A stretch of 64,000 nucleotides of DNA from a virus. The stretch lies in IMG/VR virus record IMGVR_UViG_3300034374_007216, positions 1 to 64,000 of that record, one strand, 5' to 3'. A model generated the notes under the pieces. The model saw only the letters and a program-made list of their open reading frames with translations, ran no database searches and was not told the DNA's origin. Shown here one piece after another: positions 13,401 to 49,945 of the stretch. Within the stretch, counting starts at the first letter, position 1, and each line of letters starts with the position of its first letter. The position numbers and the translations under genes are program-made.

Positions 13401-13889
13401 TTAATGGCCTGTTTGCTGTTGATGTGCCTGTAATGCTTGCCAATTAGGAAACATATTACCACAGGCATAACATTGTTCCATACGACCCATTTTGTACGCA
13501 TCGTCAGTTTTCTTTACTGCTACTTTGTTCTTATCTTTCGGTTTAGCCGTAATAGCAATTACCATAACCATTCCTTTCTTTTCTTTATCTTTCATTGCTT
13601 TCACCATTGTTGGTTTGCCACCGACACCTTGTTTTTTGGCACGCTTGCGTTTTGTAGCCGCTTGTTTCTCACCTTCGGACATTGAACCGCTTGTGCGTGG
13701 AGTCTTATCACTTACCTTAACACTTGGGCGACATTTAGGATAACCCTTGCCCGATAATTTAGCCTTACTTCGACCACATGGCGGGTGCTTACCATCTTTG
13801 TCTTTACGGCTTACATCCACCCACTTTTCCTTAAACCATCGGTTCAAGTCCTTTACAATGAGAACATCATGGCAGGTGCATCGTGTCAT
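13401..13889 (-). CDS. Basic hypothetical protein (widespread marine-virus RWFKEKWVD family)
   Basis: LNRWFKEKWVDVS...CGRS...YPKCRP, with a C-terminal C2H2-like CYAC...HQQQTGH. Confidence 0.6.
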   Translation of the reverse strand: MTRCTCHDVLIVKDLNRWFKEKWVDVSRKDKDGKHPPCGRSKAKLSGKGYPKCRPSVKVSDKTPRTSGSMSEGEKQAATKRKRAKKQGVGGKPTMVKAMKDKEKKGMVMVIAITAKPKDKNKVAVKKTDDAYKMGRMEQCYACGNMFPNWQALQAHQQQTGH

Positions 13890-14107
13890 TCTTTCTTCAC
13901 CCACGCATCACAGATATTATCAGCATGACAATTGAAATCGTACCAATTACAATATCCCGTTTTTGGGTCATCTGTAACCGAATTATCCCATGCTTTACAT
14001 GTCGCACATGTTTTTTTGAGTTTCTTTTGTTCTTGAGAAGCCTCACGGTAGTTTGGTGCATCACGCTTTTCCTTGAGAAAAGCCATGACATACTCAAACG
14101 CCGTCAT
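13886..14107 (-). CDS. Small Cys-rich protein with N-terminal tag
   Basis: MTAFEYVMAFLK followed by CATC...C...C...CDAW. Translationally coupled to both neighbours. Confidence 0.6.
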   Translation of the reverse strand: MTAFEYVMAFLKEKRDAPNYREASQEQKKLKKTCATCKAWDNSVTDDPKTGYCNWYDFNCHADNICDAWVKKE

Positions 14108-14532
14108 TTTTTATTCCTCCAATCACTTTCCCAAAACTGTTTTGCATCCTCACTTTGATGTATAGAAGGCTCAATTTGACGATTGAATTTTTCTTGCAAA
14201 AGATGTTCTAATAACTGATACATAGCCGTATTGATTCCTTGTCGTCTGTTGATTTGATTTACATTTGCTCTATCAACTGTTATTTTGTCATCTTCATATC
14301 TTAAATTAGCATGTCCTACATTTTCTCCTTTAGGATTAGAAACAACAGCATCTATTCCGGGTGAAAATGGGTCATCATAATCCCAAGCAGTTATAGGGTA
14401 TATTTTGTTACTATCTTTTGGATTAACATAATCCACATTGATTATTTTTTGACCTTCATCTTGATTTTCTGTATATGAATCCCAATCTATAGGGGCTTTT
14501 AGTACGAACCAAGCAATTTCAAAGGGATTCAT
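14104..14532 (-). CDS. GNAT-family acetyltransferase-like protein with N-terminal tag
   Basis: GNAT motif A-like RRQGINTAMY and QSEDAKQFW. Starts MNPFEIAWFVLK. Confidence 0.65.
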   Translation of the reverse strand: MNPFEIAWFVLKAPIDWDSYTENQDEGQKIINVDYVNPKDSNKIYPITAWDYDDPFSPGIDAVVSNPKGENVGHANLRYEDDKITVDRANVNQINRRQGINTAMYQLLEHLLQEKFNRQIEPSIHQSEDAKQFWESDWRNKK

Positions 14533-14711
14533 TTCTTTTTCTTCCCCCGAAACTTACCTTTGCAGTATTGTACAGCCCAACCATTCGCATAGGCTGATGG
14601 ATAAACTTTGAATTTTCTTTTTGCCGCCGCTTTACCTTCGGGGCATAGTTTTTTTTCAAGTGAATCCCACGCAGTACCCATACCTACACAATGACCGCAT
14701 TCACAACTCAT
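14529..14711 (-). CDS. Small basic protein (YPSAYANGW family)
   Basis: LCPEGKAAAKRKFKVYPSAYANGWAVQYCKG, preceded by MGTAWDSLEK. Confidence 0.6.
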   Translation of the reverse strand: MSCECGHCVGMGTAWDSLEKKLCPEGKAAAKRKFKVYPSAYANGWAVQYCKGKFRGKKKK

Positions 14712-14741
14712 ATCAAAACCCCCATTCATCAAAAGGATATA

Positions 14742-16226
14742 TCACGGTATCATCCATCCATCTGCGGGATTATGATTTCGATGTGGTTTCCCACCAATCC
14801 ACTCATCAAAGCCGGGTAGTACATCATCAAGTAAGACCACTGAACCTTTGAATTCTTTTGTCGCCCAATTTGCAAGTGCAAGCGACATAGCAAGGTCATC
14901 ATGTGTACCCACAGACTCAAGTTTGCCATTCTTCTGCATACCAAATCTGTTCAATTCAGTTTCTAACTTGTGTGTAAATTCTTGACTTCTTTTATCACCA
15001 TAAGGTGTTTGAATTTGACCTTGTTCAAATGCCATTAAAAGCGACATAAACAAACTTTCTTTTCGTGTTTTTGTGGTCATAAAAGTACGAATTGGTATAT
15101 CATTTCGCATGTCTTGAAGTTCTGCGGCAAACATTCTTTGGAAATTATTTCCTTCAAGTTCAATTAAATCTGGTTGAAAACGATTATTCAGTAAAAGAAT
15201 ATGATTTTTCTGTGCCGCACCACTCATACCTTTTTCATGCACAATACTTACTATTTGCTTTACATTTTCACCGGGAGGTGTTCGTAGTACAGTCATAGCA
15301 GTAAAGTCGGCATTCTTGTCCGATGCAATTGCAGTATCCCATCCGATAAAGTGTTGCCCGAAAACACCTAACACTTCACCCTCATCGTCATATTCATACT
15401 CCGCTCGGTCAAGTAAAACAAGGTCTTTATTTCGTGCTTTTTCAAGAATGTCGTGAGGAAACATACTTGCTACATCATGAATAGGTTCGCACAAATATTC
15501 ACGAGAAAATTGAATTGCTGGCATTGTAAGTCGTCGCTCATCAAGTGCTTGAATATTCCATCGCTCCGGCCATAATGCTACGCCCTCTTTGTTGATTGCA
15601 GGGTATGTTTCAACAGTAAATGTTTCAGTTTCTTCAAGTTGCGAATACAAGTCGTTGTAACTAAATGGCGTACCGACCATCATCAAACGACCTGTGTGGT
15701 GGAGAACAGGAAGCAATACACCATAGAACCAATCAGCCGCACGCTGTAGTTCTGTACCTGTTGTACCCCAAAGAATGTCATCACACAATACAACATTAGG
15801 GTGGAAACCACGAGTACCACCACCAACCGATTTTGCCATGATACGGCTACCGTTTGAAAATTCAAAGTAGGTTTTTCGCCACGGTCTGCCTTCGGGAATA
15901 AGATGTCGAATAGATGGTGTGCTTTCGATATTGTTACGAATAAAACGCATGTGTTCAAGCGTTTGTTCAAGAGAATGTGAGAAAATCATGATGTGAGTGC
16001 CGGGTTGAAAAGCGGCAATCCAAAGAGCATATGACATGAAAAAGACGGACTTACCGTGGTCACGAGATGCTTTTACGCAGTAGTATCTGTTTTTTGCTAA
16101 ACCCTCATCCCACGCTTCGTGGTGTCGTGAATAATCGAAGCCAAGAATATCACGAAAGAAATATTCAAACGACTTTGCCGACATCTTGCGGTCCATGTCG
16201 AGAATGAATTCTTCCATGTCCGACAT
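14742..16226 (-). CDS. terL: Terminase large subunit
   Basis: Walker A ASRDHGKS, Walker B VLCDD, GTP coupling motif, nuclease motifs IGWD and HDDLAMSLALA. Confidence 0.92.
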   Translation of the reverse strand: MSDMEEFILDMDRKMSAKSFEYFFRDILGFDYSRHHEAWDEGLAKNRYYCVKASRDHGKSVFFMSYALWIAAFQPGTHIMIFSHSLEQTLEHMRFIRNNIESTPSIRHLIPEGRPWRKTYFEFSNGSRIMAKSVGGGTRGFHPNVVLCDDILWGTTGTELQRAADWFYGVLLPVLHHTGRLMMVGTPFSYNDLYSQLEETETFTVETYPAINKEGVALWPERWNIQALDERRLTMPAIQFSREYLCEPIHDVASMFPHDILEKARNKDLVLLDRAEYEYDDEGEVLGVFGQHFIGWDTAIASDKNADFTAMTVLRTPPGENVKQIVSIVHEKGMSGAAQKNHILLLNNRFQPDLIELEGNNFQRMFAAELQDMRNDIPIRTFMTTKTRKESLFMSLLMAFEQGQIQTPYGDKRSQEFTHKLETELNRFGMQKNGKLESVGTHDDLAMSLALANWATKEFKGSVVLLDDVLPGFDEWIGGKPHRNHNPADGWMIP

Positions 16227-16230
16227 AGTA

Positions 16231-17400
16231 TCATCTCAACATCTCAAGATACATGTTCATAACGAGCAAACCTGCTTCGTGTGGAGTTGCTTTACGAAGA
16301 ATATCACCATGAAGTTCGTAAGCATAATCAACAAATGATTTATTTATATATTGACCAATATTTTCACGAGTAACACTTGGCATCCCTTCTCTAAGATTTT
16401 GATTGAATTGTTGTAATTGTGTATCAATTGTTCCTTGAGCACCCGCTCCACCTCTTTGCATCATGTTATGTATATCTTGCAATTGTGTCATTTGTTGCAT
16501 ATTAAAAGGAGTTGTTGTGGCAAAAGTACGCATTGGTTGCATTTGAGAGCCTAAATATTGAGGAGGTGACTGTTCTGGTTGAAATTGAGTTAAAGATGTT
16601 TGAGTAGTATTTGATTGTAAGGGTGTTTGAGTAGTATTTAGTGGCATTTGAAAGGAAACATTTGGGTCTATTGGTACACTCATTCTTTCAAGTAATCGTG
16701 CTTGTTGTTGCATATTTGCATCAACCCCTGTAGGAGTTTGAGATGCGGCAGGTTGTAGCATCATTTGTTGGCCTATCGCTTGAGGTGAAAATGGTCCTTG
16801 TGGGTTCTGCAAAGGTTGGCTAACTGCTACAGGACCGCTTATTTGTTGTGGTGTGGTAGTTTGAGGTGCGGCAGTTTGTTGTGCAGTTTGATGTGCTTGT
16901 GTTGGGTCTTGCCTTTGTGATAGCGTATCTTGTGCTTGATTTAACATAGCAAGTCGAGCCATTTCTCTTTGTCGCTCTTCGTATTCTTTCGTAGCCATGT
17001 CTTGAGTCTGCTGTGCCTCGGTAGGACTACCACCGGTTAAACCGCCGACATTTGCACGAAATTGGTCTTTGGCAGATGTCAATGCACTAAGATTACCCCC
17101 TTGTAAGCCGTATGCTGTTTGAAGGCCTGTCAAAGCGGCGGCAAGGCCTGTACCAGCAACATTAGCACCAGCCGCAAAGCGTTGAGCACGAGTGGGTTTA
17201 ACACCAAGTTGTGAACCGGGAATGAAGCCTTGACGAACATCATTGGGATTATTTGGGTTTTGTACAAGCCCTCTTGCCCCACCAAAAAGAGTGGCCACAT
17301 TACCCAAAAAAGAAGTCTTTGGTGCAGACCCCGGTTGCGTCACTTGATACTGTATGTTACTATTAGCCGCTTGTTTGCGAATCAATACTTTATTATTCAA
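16231..17400 (-). CDS. Gln-rich hypothetical (putative internal virion) protein
   Basis: 389 aa, low complexity, begins MNNKVLIRK. Confidence 0.6.
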   Translation of the reverse strand: MNNKVLIRKQAANSNIQYQVTQPGSAPKTSFLGNVATLFGGARGLVQNPNNPNDVRQGFIPGSQLGVKPTRAQRFAAGANVAGTGLAAALTGLQTAYGLQGGNLSALTSAKDQFRANVGGLTGGSPTEAQQTQDMATKEYEERQREMARLAMLNQAQDTLSQRQDPTQAHQTAQQTAAPQTTTPQQISGPVAVSQPLQNPQGPFSPQAIGQQMMLQPAASQTPTGVDANMQQQARLLERMSVPIDPNVSFQMPLNTTQTPLQSNTTQTSLTQFQPEQSPPQYLGSQMQPMRTFATTTPFNMQQMTQLQDIHNMMQRGGAGAQGTIDTQLQQFNQNLREGMPSVTRENIGQYINKSFVDYAYELHGDILRKATPHEAGLLVMNMYLEMLR

Positions 17401-19355
17401 AGTACACCCCTCCCTTTTAACACCGCCATAACTCTATCCATAACATCATTTGATTTGTAATATTCGGCCAACATTCGCTGTCGTGGGTCGGCTATGCTCG
17501 CTTGTGCTCTTGCCTCAAGTTCAGTTAGCGGTGCATCACTTATTGGTTGTGGTCGTCGCCTTCCTGCCATTTCAAGCAACTGCCTAAAGTCAGCAGGTGA
17601 ATATTGTCCGATTTGTGGTCGAACTTGTTGAAATTGTTGCATAGGTGTAGCGGGATAAGTTGAGGGTACGGGTGTCACAGGGGATGCGTTCGGCGGAGAT
17701 ATAACCGAAGATGAGAGAGAAGGTTGTGAAGGAGGCAACCTTGCATCCCCTGCGACAGTAAGTGATGGGTCGAAGCCCTGTGTTGGTGCATAGTCACTGA
17801 TTTCGTGTAAATATGCATCCATGTGAGGCTCAAGACTATACGCATCATATTGCCCCGTTTCTGTGTTCATTGTTGGATAGTTGATGACATTTCTTGGCTT
17901 CATAGCCTCAGTTGGTATATCTCCAACTCCCATTTGTATATTATGACCTCTAAAACTTGCTTGATGGTTTGCAAGAGCCTCAATAATTGTTCTAAATCTA
18001 TCAACTTGCCCCATAAGTTTGTCACTATAATGAGCATTTGTAACTTTTAATTCATCAGCAGTTATTTGATGGTCGCCAAAATTACTTCTGCCTTGTTCTC
18101 CCGATGCACCCGATGCACGAGCAAGAGCAAGCACACGCTTGGCTGTTTCGTGTAATCCTTTACCACCTTTTTCACCAGCAGTAAGATATTGTGCTTGTTG
18201 TTCAAGTGAAAGTGCATCTTCATTAGCACCATATTTTTGAGCCATGTAATCGTATAATTTTTTAAAAGTACCTTGCCAATTACGACCAAACAAAAACATC
18301 ATAGCAGGTACATGTGACATATCTTCAATAAGTGCTTGGCGTAAATCGGGTGTTTGAAGAATTTCATGAAGAGGTCTGTTAATCATATCGGGATTTGCCA
18401 TTGTACCTTGATTGATTGTTACATTGATGTTAGGTATATGTTCCATACCTCCTTGTAAGGCTTCATCAATCATTGCGTAAGCCGCTTGATGCAAGTCTGT
18501 GGCTTTTTGTTTGCCTTTCTTTTGCAAGTTTTCTTTTAAATTAGGATAAAAGAAAATATCGGGCAAATGATGTGTAACACTCCATGTATGTACAGGGGTT
18601 TGGTCGCCGTAGTAACCTTCGGGAGCATGACCCATCATACCCGAATCAACTTCTCCGGGGTGTTGTTGAGCATGAGAACGAATATATCTTTCGGGAGCAG
18701 TATTTTTAGCATAAATATATGGTTTTGTTATCCACTGCATTGCATTTTTAATTTCCGCTTGAGGTATGCCTATATCTTCTAAAGCGTGTAATAATTGTTG
18801 ATGAAATGGAATATAATATGATTCAAGGAAACGACCAATAGGAGTTTTGTCATAATTTTTATTTGTGAGCATAGTAATTTTACTTCCACCATGTGTTCTT
18901 GATGGTCTATTTGTTATATATCGTGTAGCGTCGCCGGGTGGTAACGCATTAGCAAGTATTTTACGCCATTCTGGATGCATAATATTTGACAATTGATGTG
19001 AGTCTGCATTAGTGTGAGTATCATTAAATTGGTTAATTGCATGTTGTACAACCTCTTTAGGGTCAATATTGAGGCCTCGTGCCGCTAAAAATTCACCAAC
19101 ATGATGAATAACAGCATCAATTCCATGACGAAAATCACCCATTGCTGTTTGCCATACGAATTCTCCGTGTTTTCCTTCAACCCATTGTCCATCGTATGAA
19201 TTACCTTGACCGTCATGAGCGAATGCTGGAATATCGAATTGGTTTTCACCTGCACGAAAATGTGATGGTGGAGGATTTCTCAAAATTGCTGGTCCTGTTG
19301 GTGTGTGAGCCATAAGACTCCACCCCTTGAGCAATGGGTATCGAATCTGTATCAT
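17397..19355 (-). CDS. Hypothetical protein
   Basis: 652-aa ORF coupled to both neighbours, with N-terminal YPLLKG. Confidence 0.65.
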   Translation of the reverse strand: MIQIRYPLLKGWSLMAHTPTGPAILRNPPPSHFRAGENQFDIPAFAHDGQGNSYDGQWVEGKHGEFVWQTAMGDFRHGIDAVIHHVGEFLAARGLNIDPKEVVQHAINQFNDTHTNADSHQLSNIMHPEWRKILANALPPGDATRYITNRPSRTHGGSKITMLTNKNYDKTPIGRFLESYYIPFHQQLLHALEDIGIPQAEIKNAMQWITKPYIYAKNTAPERYIRSHAQQHPGEVDSGMMGHAPEGYYGDQTPVHTWSVTHHLPDIFFYPNLKENLQKKGKQKATDLHQAAYAMIDEALQGGMEHIPNINVTINQGTMANPDMINRPLHEILQTPDLRQALIEDMSHVPAMMFLFGRNWQGTFKKLYDYMAQKYGANEDALSLEQQAQYLTAGEKGGKGLHETAKRVLALARASGASGEQGRSNFGDHQITADELKVTNAHYSDKLMGQVDRFRTIIEALANHQASFRGHNIQMGVGDIPTEAMKPRNVINYPTMNTETGQYDAYSLEPHMDAYLHEISDYAPTQGFDPSLTVAGDARLPPSQPSLSSSVISPPNASPVTPVPSTYPATPMQQFQQVRPQIGQYSPADFRQLLEMAGRRRPQPISDAPLTELEARAQASIADPRQRMLAEYYKSNDVMDRVMAVLKGRGVL

Positions 19356-21001
19356 CCCATATGCCCCCTACGAGAAATAAGAATACCAGCAGGGTCAAGA
19401 CCCATTCTGCTTGAATTTGTTTCAAGATTTTGTGTTGGTCCATCATTCTTTTCATCTTCATCTTCATTGTTTTGAACACCTGCGGGGTGGTCGGGAACAT
19501 GACCGTTTTCAAACGCCGAGCCTCCACCTTGCATCGCTTTCTTTAATTTCGCTTCTCTTTCTTTTGCCGCAATAAGCCGACGCATTAAATTAAGCATTTC
19601 CATATGTCTTGCGAAATTTTTTGCTTTCAAAATGTCGCTTTGAGTTCTATCTTCACTCATCATAATACTTGATGGTGGTGCTGGCATACTTGGTACAGAT
19701 GATTGAACAGGTGGTAATTGTGGTGGCATCATTGGTGGCATCATTGGTGGTTGTGGAGGTCGTGGTGCTCTTACTCGTAGTGGTCGAAGTGATGGTTGTC
19801 GCATCATTCCCTTTTGTTGTGGCAACAATCCACCAAGACGACCCGCTCCTGTTGGACCAGCATAACTGCCTCGTTGTGCAAATCGAGCGTGTGGTGAAAA
19901 TGTAGTTCGCACATTACCAAGAATTTTTCTTGCCTCGGATTGACCTTGATAGGCTCGGTATCGTTGTGGGTCTTTACTCATCGGTTGTTTAGTCGCAATA
20001 CCCCTGTGGCTCATTTCAACGGCTAAGTGAGGCAACATCAAACCTGTTTTCTTACCACCTTTGATACCACGCATACGGGCTTTAAACCGTCGCATTGTTG
20101 CCCCTACCGGGTCCATGCCGCCGGGAGGTCGCTTGAATTGTCCTGTTGATGGTCGAAATTCTTGACGGGCTTCTTGTTTTCTGCGTCGTGCAATTGTGCG
20201 TGGTGTTTCTATTTTGAGCAAATTACTCCAAGCATCATCCATCGGCTCGCTCATAGTGAAACCTGTTTTTTCATTAAACGGTACATCAGTAAAATCACGA
20301 TATTCACCTTCTATATCATCAAACGGGGGTCGTGCATCATCAACAATAAAATTATGTAAATCATATAATCTATCAAAAAAATCTTCACGAGATGTAGCAC
20401 CTGCTAAATGGTCTATATCGGGTTGTGTAAAATCATCCCCAATTCCTTCGTATTCCCACGGTTTATCTATCAATTCTTGAATCCAATTATACCATTCGGG
20501 GTGAACATCATCACGATTTGGCATATTATATCTGTATTTGTATTGATTTTCTCCGGGGTGTACAGTAGGTTCTTCCTTCAACAATGTACTCCAAGCATCA
20601 TCCATCGGCTCGCTCATTGCGATTGGTAATGGTCCTGTCATTGCTGAACCTGTGCCTGTTTTAGCACCTGTAGCAAGGTCAAGTAAATTACCTCGACTAC
20701 CGGGCGGTCCACCTGTAAGTCCAATTTCACGCTCTTCATCTCTTTTGTTTGAATCATTCATAGCAACAGGGCTTTCTTCACCACGCAATCCTTGTGAAGC
20801 ACGAATTTTAATGTGTTTTATTTTACCCTTATTTGCTTTCTTTTCTTCTTCTTTGAGTTTCTTTTCTTCACGCTTTTGCTCATTGTATTCGGGTGAAGCG
20901 GGATTGTATTTTGTTTCATCTTCATTTGCAGATGAATACATCTTATCCGATTCACTACGAGGGTTATACAGGCGAGTGTCCGAACCTCTTCCCATAACCA
21001 T
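19352..21001 (-). CDS. Modular protein with two MSEPMDDAWSxLLK tags
   Basis: 549 aa. An acidic 121-aa module is bounded by the duplicated tag. Confidence 0.7.
   Translation of the reverse strand: MVMGRGSDTRLYNPRSESDKMYSSANEDETKYNPASPEYNEQKREEKKLKEEEKKANKGKIKHIKIRASQGLRGEESPVAMNDSNKRDEEREIGLTGGPPGSRGNLLDLATGAKTGTGSAMTGPLPIAMSEPMDDAWSTLLKEEPTVHPGENQYKYRYNMPNRDDVHPEWYNWIQELIDKPWEYEGIGDDFTQPDIDHLAGATSREDFFDRLYDLHNFIVDDARPPFDDIEGEYRDFTDVPFNEKTGFTMSEPMDDAWSNLLKIETPRTIARRRKQEARQEFRPSTGQFKRPPGGMDPVGATMRRFKARMRGIKGGKKTGLMLPHLAVEMSHRGIATKQPMSKDPQRYRAYQGQSEARKILGNVRTTFSPHARFAQRGSYAGPTGAGRLGGLLPQQKGMMRQPSLRPLRVRAPRPPQPPMMPPMMPPQLPPVQSSVPSMPAPPSSIMMSEDRTQSDILKAKNFARHMEMLNLMRRLIAAKEREAKLKKAMQGGGSAFENGHVPDHPAGVQNNEDEDEKNDGPTQNLETNSSRMGLDPAGILISRRGHMG
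20224..20617. repeat. Perfect 31-bp direct repeat pair (20224-20254, 20587-20617)
   Basis: tactccaagcatcatccatcggctcgctcat occurs twice, 363 bp apart (in frame). Confidence 0.9.
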
Positions 21002-25729: not shown

Positions 25730-26191
25730 TTACCATTGCCTAAAGACAGGTACTGAAGTATCTCCGTAGCCTAATTGCTGTAATGCTCTCATACGATGGC
25801 GACCATCATGACCCACAGGACTATCGGTAAATACATAGTCTGCTCTTGGTATTACAAAACGCATATCTTCTCCTTGCATTGCTCTTTGCATGAGGTTTTT
25901 GTAGTAATCATCTTCAACCATTTCATCTGTTCCTGTTTCTTGTAAGAATTGATTTGGAGTCATGTTGGTTATTTCCGCAAAATCTTCTAAATCACTTTCA
26001 TGCGGTATTTCTCTTTCAGTTGAATCAAATGTTTTTCCTTCTTTTATCCAAACACCCGGTAATCCCCCATGAAGACTTTTATCTTGTGTCCAATCTTCAT
26101 TATCTCCTTGAGTGACAAAACGAATACCGGGTACATTTGTTTCATACACCGGCATTTTCAAAAACAACCAAGCCTTGTCCATCGGAGTCAT
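25730..26191 (-). CDS. ParB/Srx-like protein with N-terminal tag
   Basis: GHDGRHRMRAL motif. Starts MTPMDKAWLFLK. Confidence 0.6.
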   Translation of the reverse strand: MTPMDKAWLFLKMPVYETNVPGIRFVTQGDNEDWTQDKSLHGGLPGVWIKEGKTFDSTEREIPHESDLEDFAEITNMTPNQFLQETGTDEMVEDDYYKNLMQRAMQGEDMRFVIPRADYVFTDSPVGHDGRHRMRALQQLGYGDTSVPVFRQW

Positions 26192-26193: not shown

Positions 26194-28524
26194 TTACAAC
26201 TCCCGAAGAGTTCCCTTGTCTTTGAAATGTCTTGCCCTGTTTTCATGTTCTCCTTCAAGAGTTAATTTGCCACCTTCGGTGTGGCTGATGTCTTTATGGT
26301 CGTGGCTACCGTATATGCCACGCTTTCTTCGTTCTTGGTTAAGTTGCTCTCTATACTTTATTCTTTCGGGGCTGGACTCATACTTCTTGTCGTACTCCAA
26401 CTTGTGCCGCTTGGCTTCGGGGCTTACACGCTCTTTGAGCAGTTGAAAGGCGATTTCCATAGGTTCGCTGGCGAGTTTCTTCCATTGAGAGGGGTGTACT
26501 GCGTGCGCTCTTACGGGGTCAAGGAGGCCATCGGGTTTAGTATCACCAAAATCAATACCACCGGGCATTTCCGCTTGCGAGTCTTGCCATGCGTCAAACA
26601 TTATTTCCATTACTGCTCGGTCTAATTCCTCTTTTGTAGTAGGAAAATGATTTTGAAAAGCCATATTCATGAAGTAATTTCCTTGATTATTCAAAAAGGA
26701 TAACTTGTCATCATCACTCATGTTTTCCACATAATCCCACAAAGAATTGGTAGTAGCAATAAGTTGTTCATCTGCTTCATCATTCCATATTTGTTCATGA
26801 GGATGAATGTACTCTTCGTCTTGATAATCAATGTCTTCCTTGAGCAGTTGGAAGGCGATGTTCATTGGTTCGCTGGCGAGTTTTTCATCTTCATTTTCTG
26901 CTTCTTCATTTTCTGGCTCTTGCTTTTTAGGCAACCGCACAGTTAATGGTTTTCTGTTTGTATATACATTAACAGGGTTTGCAATTCCCATTCTTTTTCT
27001 TTCTTCATTTGCCGCCTGTAATTCATCTAATCTATTTTGCCATAACATTTCGCCTCTTTTCTTATCATCTGCTCTTTTTTCCCAATAGGTTAAGGGTACG
27101 AAATCTGGCGATGACTCATTAGTTGTTCTAAAATTTAAATGATTTCTGCCGGTATCTCTCATAGTATTTTTTAAATTGTTAATAAATCTTACATCCATAT
27201 CATCCGGTTTATCCAAACCTAATGGATAATTGGGTAAATTTTCCATTGGTGCTATATTTTCATTCAATCTAAATCGGGGGCTGAATAACCGGTAGCGGAG
27301 TAATTGACTATAATCATTTTTGAGCAACCGCAAAGCGATGTCCATTGGTTCGCCTGTGTATTTCATTTGGTCGGCTTCACTAAAACCAGCATTATCACAC
27401 ATTTCATCATATAATTCATATTCCATTATTTCTTCACAACTTGCGTTTTCAACTTCTTCTATCAAAGATTCCATATATTTTAACGCTTCGTGCTTATGCG
27501 GAGTTTCATATTCGGGGTCATTTTCCTCACCAAAAGTCCAATTAGGCCCATCTTCATCTTCATCTTCAATTATCTGATTTAGGTAATTTTGGTAATCTGA
27601 AAGTATTTCTGTTCTAACAGTTTCAGCACAAGAGCAAGGGTCATTATTTTCTATTGTTTGCATATCTATCATGGGTGTATCTTCTTGCATTGGTGCTTGC
27701 TCTTCAACACTTTGAGTCATTGGAGGTTGCAATTCAAGGCTTTGTTTGAGCAGTTGGAAGGCGATTTCCATTGGTTCACCTTTTGGAAATGTAAAATCCG
27801 TTAATGGTTCATTTAAAAGTTGTTGATTTTTACTCCATTGTTGAAATGGGTCGTGAAAATCCTCAATAGATTCCCATGATTGAGGTGTTCGCTCAAGAGT
27901 AACGGGTGAAACATCTTCACTAAGAACAGGTGGTATTCCATATGCTATCAATTGTTTTGCGGCTTCAATTTCCTTTTCTTTTAATTCATCAATAGATAAA
28001 TTATTCGTTGGCATTAAAGCAGTTGCCGCCATTCTTAATGCATGAAAATCTATAGGTCTGTTTGTAATTCTTTGAATATCACTTTCTGGTACATCGCCAT
28101 AAATTATACCTTCGGGTTGCAAGACTTCTGCATATCTTTGTGGTGTATTTTTACCTTCAAACCCATAAAGATGCAACGGTCTATTTCCATGCTTGTAACT
28201 TGAAGGCACATCTGCTTTTGAATGCGATTGAAAATCGGGATTGAATGAAAATAATTCTGCGGGATATGTAAAACGGCCACCTAAAGGTACTCCGTCTAAT
28301 TCCAAAGGTAATTTATCTATATTTTTGTGTCGAGCGTATCTTAGGTTATTTCTAAAAAATACATTTTCTCCACTCATTAACGACCTTGCTTCTGCTGGTG
28401 TTTTGTATTCTGCTGGTTGCATTCTAAGTGAATGTATGCTTCCACCTAACGGGTTCACATCTTCAAGATACTGCCGATACTCTTGGGGCGAAATGTACGC
28501 TTTGCGTATCGCCACCTTCCGCAT
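26194..28524 (-). CDS. Polyprotein-like modular protein with four EPMxIAxxLLK tags
   Basis: 776 aa in five modules. The last module is HNH-like (DISH...ENRAR). Confidence 0.75.
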   Translation of the reverse strand: MRKVAIRKAYISPQEYRQYLEDVNPLGGSIHSLRMQPAEYKTPAEARSLMSGENVFFRNNLRYARHKNIDKLPLELDGVPLGGRFTYPAELFSFNPDFQSHSKADVPSSYKHGNRPLHLYGFEGKNTPQRYAEVLQPEGIIYGDVPESDIQRITNRPIDFHALRMAATALMPTNNLSIDELKEKEIEAAKQLIAYGIPPVLSEDVSPVTLERTPQSWESIEDFHDPFQQWSKNQQLLNEPLTDFTFPKGEPMEIAFQLLKQSLELQPPMTQSVEEQAPMQEDTPMIDMQTIENNDPCSCAETVRTEILSDYQNYLNQIIEDEDEDGPNWTFGEENDPEYETPHKHEALKYMESLIEEVENASCEEIMEYELYDEMCDNAGFSEADQMKYTGEPMDIALRLLKNDYSQLLRYRLFSPRFRLNENIAPMENLPNYPLGLDKPDDMDVRFINNLKNTMRDTGRNHLNFRTTNESSPDFVPLTYWEKRADDKKRGEMLWQNRLDELQAANEERKRMGIANPVNVYTNRKPLTVRLPKKQEPENEEAENEDEKLASEPMNIAFQLLKEDIDYQDEEYIHPHEQIWNDEADEQLIATTNSLWDYVENMSDDDKLSFLNNQGNYFMNMAFQNHFPTTKEELDRAVMEIMFDAWQDSQAEMPGGIDFGDTKPDGLLDPVRAHAVHPSQWKKLASEPMEIAFQLLKERVSPEAKRHKLEYDKKYESSPERIKYREQLNQERRKRGIYGSHDHKDISHTEGGKLTLEGEHENRARHFKDKGTLREL
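26435..27777. repeat. Four dispersed in-frame direct repeats (26435, 26840, 27320, 27746) encoding the tag
   Basis: Repeat unit ttgagcagttg.aaggcgat...cat.ggttc. Copies 1 and 2 match at 40/44 nt. Spacings are 405, 480 and 426 bp. Confidence 0.85.
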
Positions 28525-28575
28525 GGTATTTCTAAACGCCCATAAATTAAAGAATTATCGCCTTATGCGATGTGC

Positions 28576-30453
28576 ATGAGTCGTGTTGCTGTCAAGAAAG
28601 GCAACGACGACATCGAGAAAGAATTAGCCGGAACTGTTGGTGGAGCGGCGGCTGGTAGGTTGGCTGGTGCGGCTATTGGTAGTATTGTACCGGGAGTAGG
28701 CACTGTTATTGGTGGTATGTTAGGTGGTGCTTTAGGAGCAAAAGTTGGAGATAAAATTACTGATGCGGCGGGTGTTGGAGGTCAAGCCCCAAGTAGTACA
28801 CAAAACTCGATGGCATCTTCATCAATGGCTACATCGGGTTCGGACAACACTCAAGCAGGTCAAGAAGACAACGCCGAACAATTATCCGCCCAACAATCAG
28901 CCGCTCAAAGAGCAGGTGGGGCGGCGATGGCAATAGGCCAACATTTTGCACAGCAACAACAAATGCAACAACAGAACAATCAACAAATGGCTGAAAAGGC
29001 TAAGCAAAATTCACAAATTCAAACAGGCGAGCCGATGGATATGTCATGGCGTTTGTTAAAAGATATTTATTTTAATCAATTATACAATAAACCAGAATAT
29101 GCTCAAGCAAGACAACAAATCATTGATGCGGCTATTGAAAACATGCAAAATGTTCAATATTCACCAGATACTCATGCAAGGATTCGTGCCGGATTTCCGG
29201 GGTATGAACCATCTCATACAATAAATGGTCGAAATTTTTATACAGATGAACTTGGTCAAGATATAGATGCTCGATACCCCGAAGATTACATGTATGACCA
29301 AGAACATAGTAACCAAAAAAGATTTCCCGGCATGGTTAATATTCCACCATATCATTTAATGGATGCTATGAAAAATTTTGTTGATTGGGAAAATATACCT
29401 TTAGTCACAGAAGGTGAAAAAGTAGGTCAAAAAAAAGATGTAGGAATTGAAAATCTATTTGGTATTGGTACACCATATAAACGACAAGAACCTTATCGTG
29501 GTGTTTTACAAGAAAGATTAGGAGGATTACCTTCTGTTAAAACATTTCTTGGTAGGGATATGAGATATAAACCAGAAAGTACAGAAAATATTCACCATAG
29601 TTATTTTATGCATCCTAATTTAGAGCGTGGGCAAAATTTGCTTGAAGCAAATATTGAAAGACAAAAAGAACAAAAACGATTAGCAGAAGAAGCAGAAGCA
29701 GAACAAAAACGATTAGCAGAAGAACAACGAATAAAAGATGAAAATAGAAAAAGACAACAAGCGATAAATAGAGAAACAAGGAAAAAGAAAAAATTAGCCG
29801 ATGAAGCAGGTTTAACTGTTGAAGAATGGGAAAAAGCAGAAGAAGAAAGAATAAAAAGAGAGAAAAAAGAAGAAAAAGCAAGAATAAAAGCAGAAAAAGA
29901 ACAAAAATTACAAGAAACAATTGCAGAAAACCAACGAATAATTCAAGCAAAAATTCAAGCAAAAATAGAACGAAACAAAAGAGAAGAAAATTTCCCAAAC
30001 GATGTTAATGAAGTTCCCGAAGATGTTTTAAATACAGAAGAAGGGCGTAAAATAGCATCTAAATGGGAAAGAATTGGAAATAGAGTTTATTATAATAAAA
30101 GTCCTGTTGAAGACATGACTGATATAAGAAATGCGTGGAACATAGATTGGAAAGAAAAAGTTCTTGCTGTTGCTGTTGGGCGTAAATTAGGTTATATTAA
30201 AAAATCCGAACCAATGGATTTGGCTTGGCAACTTCTTAAAAATGAACTACAACTTCCACTTCGCTTAGGAGAAAAAATTCGTGAAGATGTCATGGCACTT
30301 GACAGGCAACACAAAATAATGGACAATCCCGATGGCACGCTAATTCAAAACATTCATCCCGACATGGAAAATGTCGTTAAGTTGCTCACAAATATGGAAG
30401 CCGATAAACAACCTGTACCTACACGGCCTTCAAGACCTGCATACCTGTTTTGA
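28576..30453 (+). CDS. Modular protein with glycine-zipper N-terminus and two EPMD tags
   Basis: Gly-zipper GAAIGSIVPGVGTVIGG, tags GEPMDMSWRLLK and SEPMDLAWQLLK, and a charged coiled coil. Confidence 0.7.
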   Translation: MSRVAVKKGNDDIEKELAGTVGGAAAGRLAGAAIGSIVPGVGTVIGGMLGGALGAKVGDKITDAAGVGGQAPSSTQNSMASSSMATSGSDNTQAGQEDNAEQLSAQQSAAQRAGGAAMAIGQHFAQQQQMQQQNNQQMAEKAKQNSQIQTGEPMDMSWRLLKDIYFNQLYNKPEYAQARQQIIDAAIENMQNVQYSPDTHARIRAGFPGYEPSHTINGRNFYTDELGQDIDARYPEDYMYDQEHSNQKRFPGMVNIPPYHLMDAMKNFVDWENIPLVTEGEKVGQKKDVGIENLFGIGTPYKRQEPYRGVLQERLGGLPSVKTFLGRDMRYKPESTENIHHSYFMHPNLERGQNLLEANIERQKEQKRLAEEAEAEQKRLAEEQRIKDENRKRQQAINRETRKKKKLADEAGLTVEEWEKAEEERIKREKKEEKARIKAEKEQKLQETIAENQRIIQAKIQAKIERNKREENFPNDVNEVPEDVLNTEEGRKIASKWERIGNRVYYNKSPVEDMTDIRNAWNIDWKEKVLAVAVGRKLGYIKKSEPMDLAWQLLKNELQLPLRLGEKIREDVMALDRQHKIMDNPDGTLIQNIHPDMENVVKLLTNMEADKQPVPTRPSRPAYLF

Positions 30454-31255
30454 TTTCATCAACAATTGCTGATGAAATTTTTAGTTTCTCTTCATTTACG
30501 CCTGTTTCAAAACCCCACACATGAAGGTACTTCACAAGTTTTTCAGTTGAAATGTTTGCACCACTTTTTTCGGCAAAAGGACAACCACCAAGCCCTCCTA
30601 TGCTACTATCGAATTCAGTAATGCCGTAAAACAAACCGCTTTGAATTATTTTTATAGCCTTTTCTTCATCTCCTTTATGGTGCAAGTGCAACGCAGGTTT
30701 TATTTTCTCAGCAATTGAAATGCTTGCCATGTCTTTCACCTGCCAAATTTCACCGATGCCTACGGTGTCTGCAAACACAACCGTCGAGCCAAATAATTTT
30801 GCATCACGAATACAATTTTTCAATACTAAGTTTGTAACTTTACCGGTGTACGGAGAGCCAAACGCCATGCTAAGATACACTCGCACATTTTCTTTTGGCA
30901 CACCATTGAGCATCGTTTGATACATTTGCACAATTTCACTGCGAGTCTTTTTCATGTTTCGCATGTTAAATTCTTCACACGGTGAAAACACGATGTTGAA
31001 TTTTTCCGCCCCTGCCGCTTTTGCTCGGTCAAAGCCACGCTGATTCATGACAAGTACGCCGCCATGCTGAAACACCTGCTCCGCATCAGCCATCTGCGGA
31101 ACAAGTTTAGGGTGAGCGAAACTTACTTCTTCGACGCTCTCCAACCCCGCATCGTAAAGTGAATGGATAAGACGCACTTTAGTTTCAGTGTCAATAATTT
31201 GTTTGATATTTTGTAATCCATCTCTCGGACCTACTTCGTACACTGAAACACGCAT
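30419..31255 (-). CDS. hmgL: Hydroxymethylglutaryl-CoA lyase
   Basis: EVGPRDGLQN, ADTVG, HLH and GLGGCPFA...GANISTE motifs of the DRE-TIM HMG-CoA lyase family. Confidence 0.88.
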   Translation of the reverse strand: MRVSVYEVGPRDGLQNIKQIIDTETKVRLIHSLYDAGLESVEEVSFAHPKLVPQMADAEQVFQHGGVLVMNQRGFDRAKAAGAEKFNIVFSPCEEFNMRNMKKTRSEIVQMYQTMLNGVPKENVRVYLSMAFGSPYTGKVTNLVLKNCIRDAKLFGSTVVFADTVGIGEIWQVKDMASISIAEKIKPALHLHHKGDEEKAIKIIQSGLFYGITEFDSSIGGLGGCPFAEKSGANISTEKLVKYLHVWGFETGVNEEKLKISSAIVDEIKTGMQVLKAV

Positions 31256-31285: not shown

Positions 31286-31966
31286 TTATCTTCTTGAGTG
31301 GTATTGACTACCCATTCTTTGCATCATTCTGTTTCTTTGGGAGTTTGGACCGCCGCCTCGTCTTGGTCGTACTTGGACTTTTGGTGTTGTTTGAATTGGC
31401 TTGAAAACATCTCTTCGTGGTGCAGGTGGTTTGGGCGTTGGTCGTGCGGGGTTTGCTTGAGGGAATCTTGGTTGTTCTATTCTTGCAGGGCCTTCGGGGT
31501 CATATGTTGGTACATCTTCGACCATCCCCATTCCGCCCATTGGCGACCAACTTCTTTCTTGATTTACTTCACTCATAGGAGTTTCATCATCCCTTGCATA
31601 CTCTTGCACAGTGCCATCCCATAGCACTTTATCATTATAATGTGCTGGATGTAAAGGGTCATAGGGTAAAGTTTGGAACATTTCCCAATCTTCAACGGGT
31701 TGAATACCTCGACGCTGATTTATTTTTTGTGCCGCAATCAAACGGTTTGCGTCGCTTTGATTACCTGTATTACCCAAATAACTTAACGAAGGAGCGGAGT
31801 GAATTTGAGCACCTGTAGGAGTCATGCCCTGTTCTTCGTATGCTTGTCGGTAATCGGCCATACGCTCCGGTGTCATACGCAACCCACCCGCTCTTGCGGC
31901 GTGTTGTAGGTCTTCACGACTAAGGGCTTTGAGAAGTTCCCATGCTTGATTAAAAGCACTCGCCAT
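31286..31966 (-). CDS. Hypothetical protein with N-terminal tag
   Basis: Starts MASAFNQAWELLKA, with a TATA-like box ~25 bp upstream. Confidence 0.65.
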   Translation of the reverse strand: MASAFNQAWELLKALSREDLQHAARAGGLRMTPERMADYRQAYEEQGMTPTGAQIHSAPSLSYLGNTGNQSDANRLIAAQKINQRRGIQPVEDWEMFQTLPYDPLHPAHYNDKVLWDGTVQEYARDDETPMSEVNQERSWSPMGGMGMVEDVPTYDPEGPARIEQPRFPQANPARPTPKPPAPRRDVFKPIQTTPKVQVRPRRGGGPNSQRNRMMQRMGSQYHSRR

Positions 31967-31998: not shown

Positions 31999-32679
31999 TT
32001 AGAAATCTGTAAGTGATGTTTGCTTTGACGGGTCAAAGGGCTTAGATTTGTTACGAGTTCGGTCCATAAACGGATAAGCACCAATGTCATATTCTTTCAA
32101 TGGACTGTTTTCTGCGTAAGGAATTTCGGGTTCGTATAAAAATGAACTTGCTTCATGAATAGAATTATCATCGGGCCTTAAATTAGAAAAACTTAATCTA
32201 ACACCGGGTGGTAAATTTTGCATAAATTTTTCATGAAAGGAATGTGATTTTTCATTTCTGTTGTCGGATTCAATGTTATAACCTCTTGCTAAAATAGCAC
32301 GAATTAATTTGTCGTAATATCCTTGCCTTCTATAATTTGAATTTGTAAATCCTTGAAAATTTCGTAATGTGTTTTCACCTAAATCAACATCGGAAAGACC
32401 TGTAATAAAATGTTTATATTCTGGTGTTGCTAAATAAAAACCTGTTTGTCCATAATCGTTAAGATTTCTAACCAAAAGATTTGGGCGTGGCAAATAAATT
32501 TCCGGCTCTCTAAACGCCCATTCACCTTCCGAATCAGCCCAATCAATTACTTCTCCGGTGTTTGGGTCGAACCGTTTTTGACTAAACAATCCGGCGATTT
32601 GAGCCATAGTATTTTTATTGCTTAGTTGAGAAAATGGCGACTTAAGCAAGTTCCACGCTTGCTCAAACGGGGTCGCCAT
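31999..32679 (-). CDS. GNAT-like protein with N-terminal tag
   Basis: Starts MATPFEQAWNLLKS. Motif A-like YRRQGYYDKLI and NEKSHSFHEK. Confidence 0.6.
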   Translation of the reverse strand: MATPFEQAWNLLKSPFSQLSNKNTMAQIAGLFSQKRFDPNTGEVIDWADSEGEWAFREPEIYLPRPNLLVRNLNDYGQTGFYLATPEYKHFITGLSDVDLGENTLRNFQGFTNSNYRRQGYYDKLIRAILARGYNIESDNRNEKSHSFHEKFMQNLPPGVRLSFSNLRPDDNSIHEASSFLYEPEIPYAENSPLKEYDIGAYPFMDRTRNKSKPFDPSKQTSLTDF

Positions 32680-47559: not shown

Positions 47560-47816
47560 AGATGAACGGAAGAGAATTTAAAGAAGAGATGATAAATAAA
47601 TTGAGAAGCGGTGAAGCATTCAGTTTAGTCACAAGATACGGAAACGAAGTTTGGGTTGAGGCTGAATTAAATAGCGATGAAAGTATTTCATCAGCACAAT
47701 TATGGTGTGGTACGAAAACGATTGCTATTGCACACAGTGATACAGTTACAGATGAGGCATGGGCATTAGCAGTAGCGAGAACTGCTCAAGAGTTTGATGA
47801 AAGAGAGGAGGAATGA
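47556..47816 (+). CDS. Hypothetical protein
   Basis: ATGA-coupled ORF. Confidence 0.55.
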   Translation: MKMNGREFKEEMINKLRSGEAFSLVTRYGNEVWVEAELNSDESISSAQLWCGTKTIAIAHSDTVTDEAWALAVARTAQEFDEREEE

Positions 47817-47856
47817 AGAATGAATAAAGAACAGTATGGAAAGATGAGGTGGTAGC

Positions 47857-48387
47857 ATGAAAAAATTTGAAGAGCAAATAAAAGAATTGATAGAAAGAAT
47901 ACAGAAAGACATTGATGAAGGTAATTTAAACTTACCTACCAACATGGTAACATGTTTAACTTACTTGAAAAAACAAGAACAGAAATTAATGGTAAAACAA
48001 AATGAACTAAAATTTACGCCTCAAGTGGGCATGGTGTGGTTTGAAGATTATGATTACACATCTTTAGTTGGGTTCATGATAAATGATTATTTATCCACGG
48101 TGTATAATTTACCTGCGTCTTGGTTCTTCCTTTTACGCTACAATCTGCGTTTATCAAATGATGATGAAATTATATTTTCTTTAGTTGATGGGGAGATTGA
48201 TGTAATGAATAACTTGCGAGTACCATACACATGTGCTTTCAATGAAGGGAAGATGTTAGGTTTGATTGATGAGAATGAAGAGATAAAATATCCTACGCCA
48301 GATGTTATTCTTGATGCGTTGTATTTGATAGAAGAATTAGAACTTTTATCGAACATAAACAGTAGCCATGCATTCACACTCGCATGA
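47857..48387 (+). CDS. Hypothetical protein
   Basis: 176 aa with GAGGTGG SD. Confidence 0.55.
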   Translation: MKKFEEQIKELIERIQKDIDEGNLNLPTNMVTCLTYLKKQEQKLMVKQNELKFTPQVGMVWFEDYDYTSLVGFMINDYLSTVYNLPASWFFLLRYNLRLSNDDEIIFSLVDGEIDVMNNLRVPYTCAFNEGKMLGLIDENEEIKYPTPDVILDALYLIEELELLSNINSSHAFTLA

Positions 48388-48413
48388 ATTTGATGATAGT
48401 CATTGGTGATAAT

Positions 48414-48635
48414 ATGAAAAGAAAATTTACAGTAGGACAAAACAAATGGCTCGTAGTCGAGCGAATTTACAAGGACTTCTATCAAATCATCGAGGCACAC
48501 CGATGCCCCGAAGTACAGGTAGGCGACCTTATGCGTAAAGAAGGGAGGGGATGGACAGCGTACAAGTCATTAGACTCGGCTTTACCACGACACACATTCC
48601 CAACACAGATTGATTTTGGAGGCGAAGAAGAATGA
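48414..48635 (+). CDS. Hypothetical protein
   Basis: GGTGA SD before MKRKF, ends GEEE. Confidence 0.55.
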   Translation: MKRKFTVGQNKWLVVERIYKDFYQIIEAHRCPEVQVGDLMRKEGRGWTAYKSLDSALPRHTFPTQIDFGGEEE

Positions 48636-48805
48636 CTGACACAGACAAATACGAATACATGGTGACTCACGACAAGTGTGGTGAATCCGATGGCCCGTTT
48701 GCAACATACGAAGAAGCGAAGGCTCACTACGAATACCTATGCTCCGAGGCTGACCCCGATAGCACCCAATACTATTTCATTGAGGAAGTGAAGAAGAATG
48801 ATTGA
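48632..48805 (+). CDS. MTDTDKY-leader small protein (57 aa)
   Basis: Read manually: MTDTDKYEYMVTHDKCGESDGPFATYEEAK... Confidence 0.6.
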   Translation: MTDTDKYEYMVTHDKCGESDGPFATYEEAKAHYEYLCSEADPDSTQYYFIEEVKKND

Positions 48806-49058
48806 CACGCAAGAGCCAACCTTTGAGGTTGTATGGTTGTGTGAACCCGATGAAAAGAATTGGGATGGTATTTTAGGTGCAGGTATGTATGAACCACGAC
48901 CTAATTTCTATACAGAACATGATGCAATGTTGTATATCAAAAACGAGCAACTACGGAGTCGTGCTATTATCAATTACTACAAAGTAGTTGAAGGCGAAAT
49001 AGAGTTTGATAGATACAAAATAATAGAGGCGAAGAAGAATGAATTTATTTACAAATAA
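48798..49058 (+). CDS. Hypothetical protein (MIDT start)
   Basis: 86 aa with a junction repeat at the start. Confidence 0.55.
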   Translation: MIDTQEPTFEVVWLCEPDEKNWDGILGAGMYEPRPNFYTEHDAMLYIKNEQLRSRAIINYYKVVEGEIEFDRYKIIEAKKNEFIYK

Positions 49059-49254
49059 ACAATTGAAATTGATACATTACTGTATCACATCGGAGTATTT
49101 CAACGGTATGGATGACCCTTGGTATCTTTGGCTTCAACTTGGTTTTGGAGATAGGGAAGAATTCCCCGAAGGGAAAGAAAGAGATGAAAAAGATGAGCAA
49201 GCACTTAAAACGCTTAGTGAACTTGCCGATTCGATATTACTAATGATAGAATAA
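49039..49254 (+). CDS. Hypothetical protein
   Basis: 71 aa after the ggcgaagaagaATG junction. Confidence 0.5.
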   Translation: MNLFTNKQLKLIHYCITSEYFNGMDDPWYLWLQLGFGDREEFPEGKERDEKDEQALKTLSELADSILLMIE

Positions 49255-49285
49255 CGATAAAATAAAATGTTGAGGTACGGGTATC

Positions 49286-49945
49286 ATGGTCGCACCTTTC
49301 GATGAGGCTTTCTCATACCTGCGACAAAATAATCCGACAGGACAATACATAGGTGGTAGCACAGGGGCGAGAAGATTCGACTTACCAATGGGGCAGTTCG
49401 TCGGTAAGCGTGGCGATAGCCCTGCTCACCTTCAAAACGAATTCGACATGAATCAATACTTGAATGCACTTGGCGTTGATGTACCACAGGCACAGGAACA
49501 ACTAATGGATGGGCGACCCATGATGCTTACTGAGTTTGAACAGGGTCAAGAATTAGGGCGAGCAAGCCCACAGGATATTCAACAATTAACGACGGACTTC
49601 GTGCCTCATGCCCTCATATCCAATTGGGATATGTTGGGGTTGGGGCGTGATAATGTCATACGCAGACCCGATGGTTCTCTTACCTATGTGGATGTAGGTG
49701 GGGCAGGTCCTTTCCGAGCACAAGGGGGGCATAAGGGTGCGTTTGGAACAAGCGTAGGGGAGTTAGATACCCTACGAGAAAAGAATCCCGAACTTGCAGG
49801 TATTACTGAACAAGACATCGGGCGGTCATTCGATGAGTACGGCGGTCAATCCGCTATGGAAGATGCGTTACAACATCTAAGAGATAGGCGTACTCAAGAC
49901 ATTATGCGACAAAGAATACAGGATTTAACCCGCCGAGTCGCATAA
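49286..49945 (+). CDS. PI3/4-kinase/HipA-like kinase-fold protein with N-terminal tag
   Basis: Gly loop GGSTGA, VGK, NE, NWD...DN...YVDVG motifs. Starts MVAPFDEAFSYLR. Confidence 0.6.
   Translation: MVAPFDEAFSYLRQNNPTGQYIGGSTGARRFDLPMGQFVGKRGDSPAHLQNEFDMNQYLNALGVDVPQAQEQLMDGRPMMLTEFEQGQELGRASPQDIQQLTTDFVPHALISNWDMLGLGRDNVIRRPDGSLTYVDVGGAGPFRAQGGHKGAFGTSVGELDTLREKNPELAGITEQDIGRSFDEYGGQSAMEDALQHLRDRRTQDIMRQRIQDLTRRVA

Follow-up and report, generated by a model that had tools for sequence, protein, structure and literature searches.

A short peptide tag on unrelated proteins of a magrovirus head-gene block: a possible address and processing signal for capsid cargo

The IMG/VR record IMGVR_UViG_3300034374_007216 is a single contig of 82,798 bases, of which positions 1 to 64,000 (the 64-kb stretch referred to below as the window) carry the head module of a magrovirus-type tailed virus of archaea. 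Magroviruses, none of which is known to have been cultured, rank with the most abundant archaeal viruses in surface ocean water, and for most of their genes no function is known. All head genes of the window lie on the minus strand (Table 1). The gene for the HK97-fold major capsid protein is adjoined by that of a prohead protease whose Pfam matches, Peptidase_S78 and S78_2, are of the HK97/XkdF type, and from 33 kb onward a plus-strand block carries replication genes (SNF2 helicase, clamp loader and family B polymerase). Among named viruses, those with the closest relatives of the capsid protein are HVTV-1, HCTV-1 and HCTV-5, siphoviruses of haloarchaea (34-37% identity), together with viruses that have been assigned to methanogens. 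Here we describe a peptide of about 12 residues, hereafter the tag, which begins single-module proteins and separates the modules (cassettes) of polyproteins encoded around this head module.

Table 1. Head genes and tag-bearing genes of the window. F numbers denote families of modules obtained by cutting proteins at their tags; T stands for a tag; aa, amino acids; ORF, open reading frame.
Feature	Position	Strand	Length	Assignment and tags
Major capsid protein	751..1851	-	366 aa	SU10_MCP, 47.4 bits (cut-off 24.1); phrog_24667 (PHROGs major head protein)
Prohead protease S78 fused to scaffold-like C-terminal half	1862..3214	-	450 aa	PF04586, 39 bits (cut-off 21); PHROGs head maturation protease
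Giant ORF	3252-9002	-	1916 aa	
Portal	10314-12071	-		Pfam/PHROGs
Stand-alone tagged gene	13886..14107	-	73 aa	Cys-rich body; tag MTAFEYVMAFLK at 14072-14101; family F15, also in locus L033
Stand-alone tagged gene	14104..14532	-	142 aa	Weak GNAT; tag MNPFEIAWFVLK at 14497-14526; family F16
Large terminase	14742-16226	-		Pfam/PHROGs
Conserved head-block protein o652	17397..19355	-	652 aa	PLLK/GW boundary near N-terminus; weak tag-like C-terminal end DVMDRVMAVLKGRGVL at 17415-17441 (profile E only 2.4)
Polyprotein F1-tag-F17-tag-F0	19352..21001	-	549 aa	Tags SEPMDDAWSTLLK at 20576-20608 and SEPMDDAWSNLLK at 20213-20245
Stand-alone tagged gene	25730..26191	-	153 aa	Possible ParB/Srx fold; tag MTPMDKAWLFLK at 26156-26185; family F4
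Polyprotein F10-T-F3-T-F34-T-F18-T-F2	26194..28524	-	776 aa	Tags at 27745-27774, 27319-27348, 26839-26868 and 26434-26463; last module F2 matches phrog_6437
Polyprotein with two internal tags	28570..30453	+	627 aa	Gly-zipper/Q-rich lead; tag at 29032-29061; 381-aa K/E-rich module; tag at 30211-30240; 70-aa module
Stand-alone tagged gene	31286..31966	-	226 aa from ATG at 31966	Tag MASAFNQAWELLK, core 31928-31957 (profile E 0.072)
Stand-alone tagged gene	31999..32679	-	226 aa	GNAT lead only; tag MATPFEQAWNLLK, core 32641-32670
Outlying tagged gene, replication block	49286..49945	+	219 aa	Divergent tag MVAPFDEAFSYLR, core 49295-49324

A search of all six frames of the window with the pattern [PATS][MF][DENQ].[AVS][WFLM].{1,2}[LVFYI][LV][KR] returned 14 sites, exactly the 8 internal and 6 N-terminal copies that a first-pass annotation of the DNA had listed, against a mean of 0.13 and a maximum of 1 in 30 codon shuffles. 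Applied to the remainder of the genome, the pattern yields a further clear copy (MNPMNDAWNLLK, 81215, minus strand). Inside proteins the consensus reads [GS]EPM[DE]xA[WFM]x(x)LLK and at protein starts Mx(x)P[FM][DE]xAWx[LV]LK, the commonest forms in related viruses being [GS]EPMDxAWxLLK and MxPFDxAWxLLK, respectively. A profile built from 145 tags of 101 representative ORFs of these relatives recovers 13 copies in the present genome at E-values no higher than 0.072. For the tag of 49286-49945 it reaches just E 1.5, and it does not recognise (E 19) the MGTAWDSLEK of ORF 14529-14732, which had been proposed as a further variant. Outside the window, two adjoining minus-strand ORFs (79213-79944 and 79926-80789) each contain KAWVFLKATRQTE, as AFHKAWVFLK near the start of one and AMSKAWVFLK at about residue 100 of the other; both probably carry tag variants that lack the acidic residue and so fall outside the pattern (profile E about 2).

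Synonymous codons vary among the 14 copies, with six Leu and four Pro codons in use, and selection therefore acts on the peptide and not on the DNA. The tag might be thought of as a DNA-level recombination linker for cassette shuffling whose peptide has little function, since shuffling is extensive and tags of the same polyprotein hardly differ in their DNA (in 26194-28524, only a few bases separate three of the four). Between genes, however, codons differ while residues are kept, and in 42 N-terminal tags from many loci A8, W9, L12 and K13 are each at least 90% conserved, which leaves such a linker very improbable. We also rejected the idea that translation starts internally at the Met of EPM, as some internal tags of relatives have Ile or Leu there and the [GS]E that precedes the internal tags is kept as protein. 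Nor is this [GS]E the translated relic of a ribosome-binding site, because its register does not fit the N-terminal tags.

Related contigs were gathered from IMG/VR with the terminase, an HMGL-like gene, the protease and the exact DNA pattern as anchors, giving 215 partly overlapping loci (2.53 Mb). They contain 282 tag matches in 204 ORFs, compared with 15-21 in codon shuffles, and the exact pattern EPMDxAWxLLK occurs in 45 stretches of IMG/VR, for a chance estimate of about 0.1. When the 101 representative tagged ORFs and the proteins of the present genome were cut at their tags, 198 modules were obtained, which fall into 112 families (78 of them singletons). Six families (F4, F16, F6, F13, F8 and F18) occur both as stand-alone proteins with an N-terminal tag and as internal cassettes, and every junction is tagged. 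For example, F4 (25730-26191 here, where homologues keep the tag in 8 of 8 cases) is an internal cassette in L211 and the last one in L180 and L189; F16 (14104-14532 here) is internal in L211; and F6 (80796-81221 here) comes last in L041, L187 and L217. Homologues of 19352-21001 are built as F1-tag-...-tag-F0, enclosing a varying choice of 0 to 3 cassettes, and up to five tags were found in a single ORF among the relatives. These proteins have the make-up of polyproteins: independent modules, one repeated tag between them, and the same modules encoded elsewhere as separate genes.

The boundaries of the tag are sharp. In 41 unique segments around the first tag of the 19352-21001 family, the tag columns score 0.9-1.0 for conservation and the flanks, which contain gaps, 0.2-0.5; the 42 N-terminal tags show no conservation past K13. 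Tag-less homologues are also known for two modules. The F2 module is related to cyanophage proteins (Syn5 gp50 and S-CBS2 gp045) that have no tag, and 0 of 89 homologue records cover at least 80% of the query. For F6 (phrog_7595; 80796-81221, minus strand), homologues of 50-73% identity occur in S-CBS2 (gp046), roseophages and others; 0 of 43 records cover at least 80% of the query, and none covers its first 40 residues. In an AlphaFold2 model of 25730-26191 (alignment of 9 rows), the overall predicted local distance difference test score (pLDDT) is 68.9 and parts of the core reach about 90; the tag forms a helix at residues 3-11, and pLDDT is below 50 over residues 5-12, so that in this one model the tag helix appears to lack confident packing on its domain. 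Taken together, the absence of conservation after the Lys, the tag-less phage homologues and the low confidence of the modelled helix identify the tag as a portable add-on. The possibility that it is an integral helix of one shared folded domain was rejected on this evidence of portability and on the model.

The F2 module (26197-26469 of the window, minus strand) is 39-55% identical to its homologues in marine bacteriophages. The phages with F2 or F6 homologues infect Synechococcus, Roseobacter, Puniceispirillum and others, and in S-CBS2 the two homologues are the products of neighbouring genes, gp045 and gp046. These observations point to an exchange of genes between viruses of bacteria and viruses of archaea in the surface ocean.

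Within the present genome, 15 modules follow a tag and belong, at the BLAST level, to 15 different families, in agreement with the earlier remark that the tag-borne bodies are unrelated. The identities proposed for these bodies fared less well. The GNAT assignment of 14104-14532 is weak, with Acetyltransf_10 of Pfam matched at E 8.7e-4, below the cut-off, and the ParB/Srx-like fold of 25730-26191 corresponds to weak fold matches (Z 5.0 or less, Foldseek E 0.13 or more). A second GNAT (31999-32679) and a kinase-like protein (49286-49945) could not be upheld beyond language-model leads, which for the latter was HipA_2 at rank 30. The last module of 26194-28524, described as HNH-like, matches a PHROG of unknown function. 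Pfam and NCBIfam searches with single modules gave sub-threshold matches only. Likewise, among 97 representative tagged ORFs, 12 match any Pfam family at E 1e-3 or better, and 5 do so above the curated cut-off (DUF5872 four times, and DUF6321); the sub-threshold matches include zinc ribbons, a SLOG domain, HD_4 and others. The set of 97 results from leaving out two truncated o652 ends (L001:30-524 and L009:111-1346) and two likely chance matches (L098:8161-8325 and L101:3159-3446). As for charge, F0 (isoelectric point 11.4; Pro-rich), F6 (10.2) and F2 (9.4) are among several strongly basic modules of this genome, and others are acidic. The lead of the plus-strand polyprotein (28570-29025) matches, over residues 7-170, segments of tail-associated lysin and tape-measure PHROGs (E 3.5e-11 to 1e-4); a Gly-zipper and Gln-rich composition is typical of membrane-active ejected proteins.

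The distribution of tags along the genome was counted in four near-complete genomes at a profile E-value of 0.5 or better with a fixed database size. These genomes have 12, 12, 11 and 7 tags, of which 40 of 42 lie on the head-gene strand. Most tags occur in arrays immediately upstream of o652 and the terminase, in the interval from portal to terminase, or immediately behind the capsid gene; in one genome (G001), seven consecutive small genes each start with a tag. The replication blocks of G001-G003 contain no tag, and by profile the tag is absent from the capsid protein, the portal and the terminase.

The end of the tag can be compared with the predicted maturation site of the capsid protein. 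In an alignment of 125 diverse capsid proteins (30-95% identity), leaders of 16-108 residues without conservation are followed by a conserved (A/S/T)D(A/D)P start; K or R stands at the aligned site before this start in 105 of the 125 and one column off in 12 more. Of these 117 proteins, 103 have a hydrophobic residue at P3, and 63 have Ala after the boundary. From this pattern, the capsid protein of the present virus is predicted to be cut at SELLK34/A35DAP (K34 codon at 1750-1752), which would remove a leader of 34 residues. The capsid protein of HVTV-1 reads ...GGMSK/ADNLLDTT at the same boundary, and the solved capsid homologue 6j3q begins near it (profile position 48 corresponds to chain residue 8). 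HK97 cuts its capsid protein gp5 at K103/S104 (PMC10275583). The end of the tag thus matches the signature of this predicted site, in line with an earlier comparison of its hydrophobic-x-Lys end with the capsid protein. LLK occurs 25 times in this genome, compared with 9.6 +/- 2.8 in shuffles; in five proteins (capsid protein, protease, giant ORF, o115 and o652) it falls within the N-terminal 35 residues. Diverse homologues of o652 keep hydrophobic-x-K followed by A or G at about residues 10-16, and 54 unique homologues of the protease-scaffold protein point to conserved candidate sites at ITLLK/S, FRILK/E and NTLK/S; caution is required for the giant ORF, whose K near the N-terminus is not invariant among homologues. 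The S78 protease is the candidate enzyme for these Lys cuts. A second cut just before internal tags is possible, to judge from the conservation of the [GS]E that precedes their Pro (G or S in 86 of 97, E in 78 of 97); internal tags also have a hydrophobic residue five places upstream.

A second shared and highly conserved motif, NM[GS]W[DE][DE][IV]H.[LM]A, ends both the protease-scaffold protein (1862-1940, minus strand) and o113, a protein of 113 residues (9568-9909, its motif at 9568-9640, minus strand). The tails read NMGWDEVH.LA and NMSWE[DE]IHEMA, respectively, and the motif is present in the majority of the homologues of both proteins (82 for the protease, 112 for o113). It is probably a capsid-binding tail, comparable to the one at the C-terminus of the HK97 protease.

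A peptide that is kept by selection on the protein, is portable, stands at every cassette junction, carries the capsid-cut signature and is encoded in the head block could be an address tag combined with a protease site for capsid cargo, that is, a portable amphipathic helix of accessory head proteins comparable to the capsid targeting sequence (CTS) of phage T4. We regard this interpretation as having about an even chance of being right. Its steps, which we infer, would be as follows. Tagged proteins would be made late in infection, alongside the head proteins, and the helix would dock its bearers to a part of the assembling procapsid (the inner face of the capsid, the scaffold or the protease), leading to their enclosure. 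The HK97-type prohead protease, in trimming the capsid leader after hydrophobic-x-Lys, would also cut at or beside the tags, so that polyprotein modules would be freed and the tag either removed or exposed. The freed modules would stay packaged beside the DNA and would probably accompany it into the host cell. The presence of a tag at every junction suits the cleavage role, an address being needed only once per chain; tags at the N-terminus of single-module proteins and tags located 2-5 residues from the C-terminus, as found in some relatives, fit the docking role and would make poor cut sites on their own.

One competing reading is a signal for the protease alone, in which the tag serves polyprotein processing by the prohead protease or another enzyme and is kept on stand-alone genes because cassettes are copied together with their tag. 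The tag at each junction, its hydrophobic-x-Lys end and the [GS]E as a second cut site would all agree with this. Conversely, its 12 conserved residues exceed the capsid site, where only P3 and P1 are conserved; single-module proteins retain the tag as strictly as described above, although losing 12 residues would achieve nothing by itself; some tags stand almost at the C-terminus; and the P1' residue is mostly not small. We therefore consider cleavage as the sole role of the tag distinctly unlikely.

Several observations nevertheless weigh against an address and processing signal for capsid cargo. The residue after the tag Lys is varied (E 26, A 22, R 16 and M 14 of 145) and small (A, G, S or T) in 46 of 145, whereas capsid proteins mostly have Ala, so that a cut exactly after this Lys may not be general. 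Of the original proposal of a capsid-loading and cleavage tag, the portability, the hydrophobic-x-Lys end and the location in the head block are supported by comparison, and a uniform cut after Lys is doubtful. The P2 Leu is nearly invariant in tags and variable in capsid proteins, and LLK may thus belong to a binding face and not to a protease site. Two genes of the window break the rule of location, namely the weakly tagged 49286-49945, which lies in the replication block beside a SNF2 helicase and a pyrimidine-dimer glycosylase, and the polyprotein 28570-30453, on the strand opposite to the head genes. The tag profile does not match the C-terminal tails of the protease-scaffold protein and o113; these tails share a hydrophobic register with the tag by eye, a likeness that carries no evidential weight. 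A co-fold of the capsid protein (125-row alignment) with a tagged N-terminus (42 rows), run without controls, scored 0.00, a value that speaks neither for binding nor against it.

The tag might also dock its bearers to another common partner: the thermosome (group II chaperonin) of the virus, the portal or terminase, or a host factor. A thermosome gene is indeed present outside the window (73444-74949, plus strand; L219:9444-10949; Cpn60_TCP1, E 2.6e-123) and in 5 of 5 near-complete tagged relatives. HVTV-1 and vir519, which have a related capsid protein, have neither tags (best profile E 3.5 in bases 5001-102319 of 102319 and in 38.8 kb, respectively) nor an annotated chaperonin in the parts examined. 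These points, too, count against capsid cargo. However, this co-occurrence is one of lineage, true of every magrovirus-specific gene, and a thermosome in 5 of 5 relatives has no discriminating power. In addition, tags are confined to the head-gene block and absent from capsid protein, portal and terminase, the match to the capsid cut signature would be a coincidence, and we know of no precedent for a linear client tag of thermosomes. A partner of this sort seems to us rather unlikely, though well worth keeping in view. Finally, the helix could hold the tagged proteins together in a single complex, by self-association or as a coiled coil, a role that would suit a short amphipathic helix bounded by Pro (within 8 residues after the Lys in 84 of 145 tags). 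About nine helical residues are nonetheless short for stable self-association, and both the C-terminal Lys signature and the placement at every junction would be left unexplained; we hold this to be highly doubtful.

If the tag is a signal for capsid cargo, it has counterparts in known systems. The T4 CTS is a conserved signal on otherwise diverse internal proteins; it sends them to the scaffolding core and can bring in foreign proteins as well (PMC3012670). The magrovirus tag resembles the T4 CTS, borne by IPI-III and Alt and removed by gp21, in that a short conserved terminal peptide is found on diverse, fast-changing proteins encoded with the head genes, and in that its end matches the predicted cut signature of its own virus's capsid protein; one short peptide on unrelated proteins, the arrangement typical of T4, is what we observe. 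It differs in having no sequence likeness to the T4 CTS, in a protease that is HK97-type S78 and not gp21, and in a hydrophobic-x-Lys site, the T4 site being Leu/Ile-x-Glu. The tag further differs from the CTS in its archaeal host and in its occurrence at C-termini and within polyproteins, of which one has as many as 5 copies. Judged by sequence, it is an analogue of the T4 system and not a member of it. With the HK97 system of gp4 prohead protease and gp5 scaffolding (delta) domain the virus shares the protease family PF04586, and a Lys precedes the predicted mature capsid start in 117 of 125 proteins, but the magrovirus leader is short (34 residues) and the scaffold is fused to the protease; we know of no set of tagged cargo proteins in HK97. 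In giant phages (SPN3US, phiKZ group), head and ejection proteins are processed: during maturation the prohead protease cuts many of those inside the head at a short motif that they have in common (PMC7411985, PMC10052503). Both the motif and the protease family differ from those of magroviruses. To our knowledge, these phages have no single 12-residue helical cargo tag and no cassette polyproteins. Encapsulin cargo peptides are mostly C-terminal, rich in Gly/Ser and Leu, and are not cut off. The magrovirus tag is, by comparison, mostly N-terminal or internal, has the form of an acidic-aromatic-Leu helix and does not show the encapsulin motif. In encapsulins, diverse cargo is enclosed in an HK97-fold shell by means of a short peptide that it carries (PMC10960027). 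A search of the main texts of two magrovirus papers (PMC5434244, PMC11706807) found no mention of such a tag, and a search of the literature on capsid targeting sequences turned up only work on T4, P1 and giant phages.

More broadly, magroviruses might run a general protein-delivery code, in which the helix and a Lys-directed HK97-type protease load a fast-shuffling set of more than 100 module families, encoded singly or as polyproteins, into the capsid and release them for co-injection into Poseidoniales cells, some modules having been captured from marine bacteriophages and then tagged. We advance this extension tentatively, as a possibility with somewhat less than an even chance. No earlier description of a system for addressing cargo would then exist for archaeal viruses, and the tag of this one would act at either terminus as well as at junctions. 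As a marker of capsid cargo, if it is one, the tag flags at once which unknown genes are probably virion-borne effectors directed at the host (counter-defence, takeover), a rule usable on any magrovirus contig, and it predicts the exact cleavage products to look for in existing marine metaproteomes. Loading by a short signal in the style of T4 would then have arisen independently on the background of an HK97-type protease in archaeal viruses and have been extended to cassette polyproteins. A tag working at either end of a protein could also serve to load proteins into HK97-fold particles.

Some further features of the locus deserve mention. The giant ORF sits between portal and protease, where large head-internal proteins are usually encoded; its N-terminus contains a conserved F.[IV][CS].NELLKSL.DG, and residues 1500-1587 give a weak match to an ATP-dependent DNA ligase domain (E 7.7e-4, below the cut-off). 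Directly after the DUF5872 gene (13401-13904) lies a homing endonuclease-like ORF (12068-13381, minus strand; phrog_5046, HNH endonuclease, with a GFIDADGS motif). In relatives, the DUF5872 protein (for example L067:11824-12855, 344 residues) runs on into a tag and an extra module, and the gene of the present virus may have been split or shortened through insertion of this ORF. Lastly, an HMGL-like gene (pyruvate carboxyltransferase / HMG-CoA lyase family; 30419-31255, minus strand; Pfam E 1.4e-19) lies amid the block of tagged genes. It has only 10 related loci in IMG/VR and may be an auxiliary metabolic gene.

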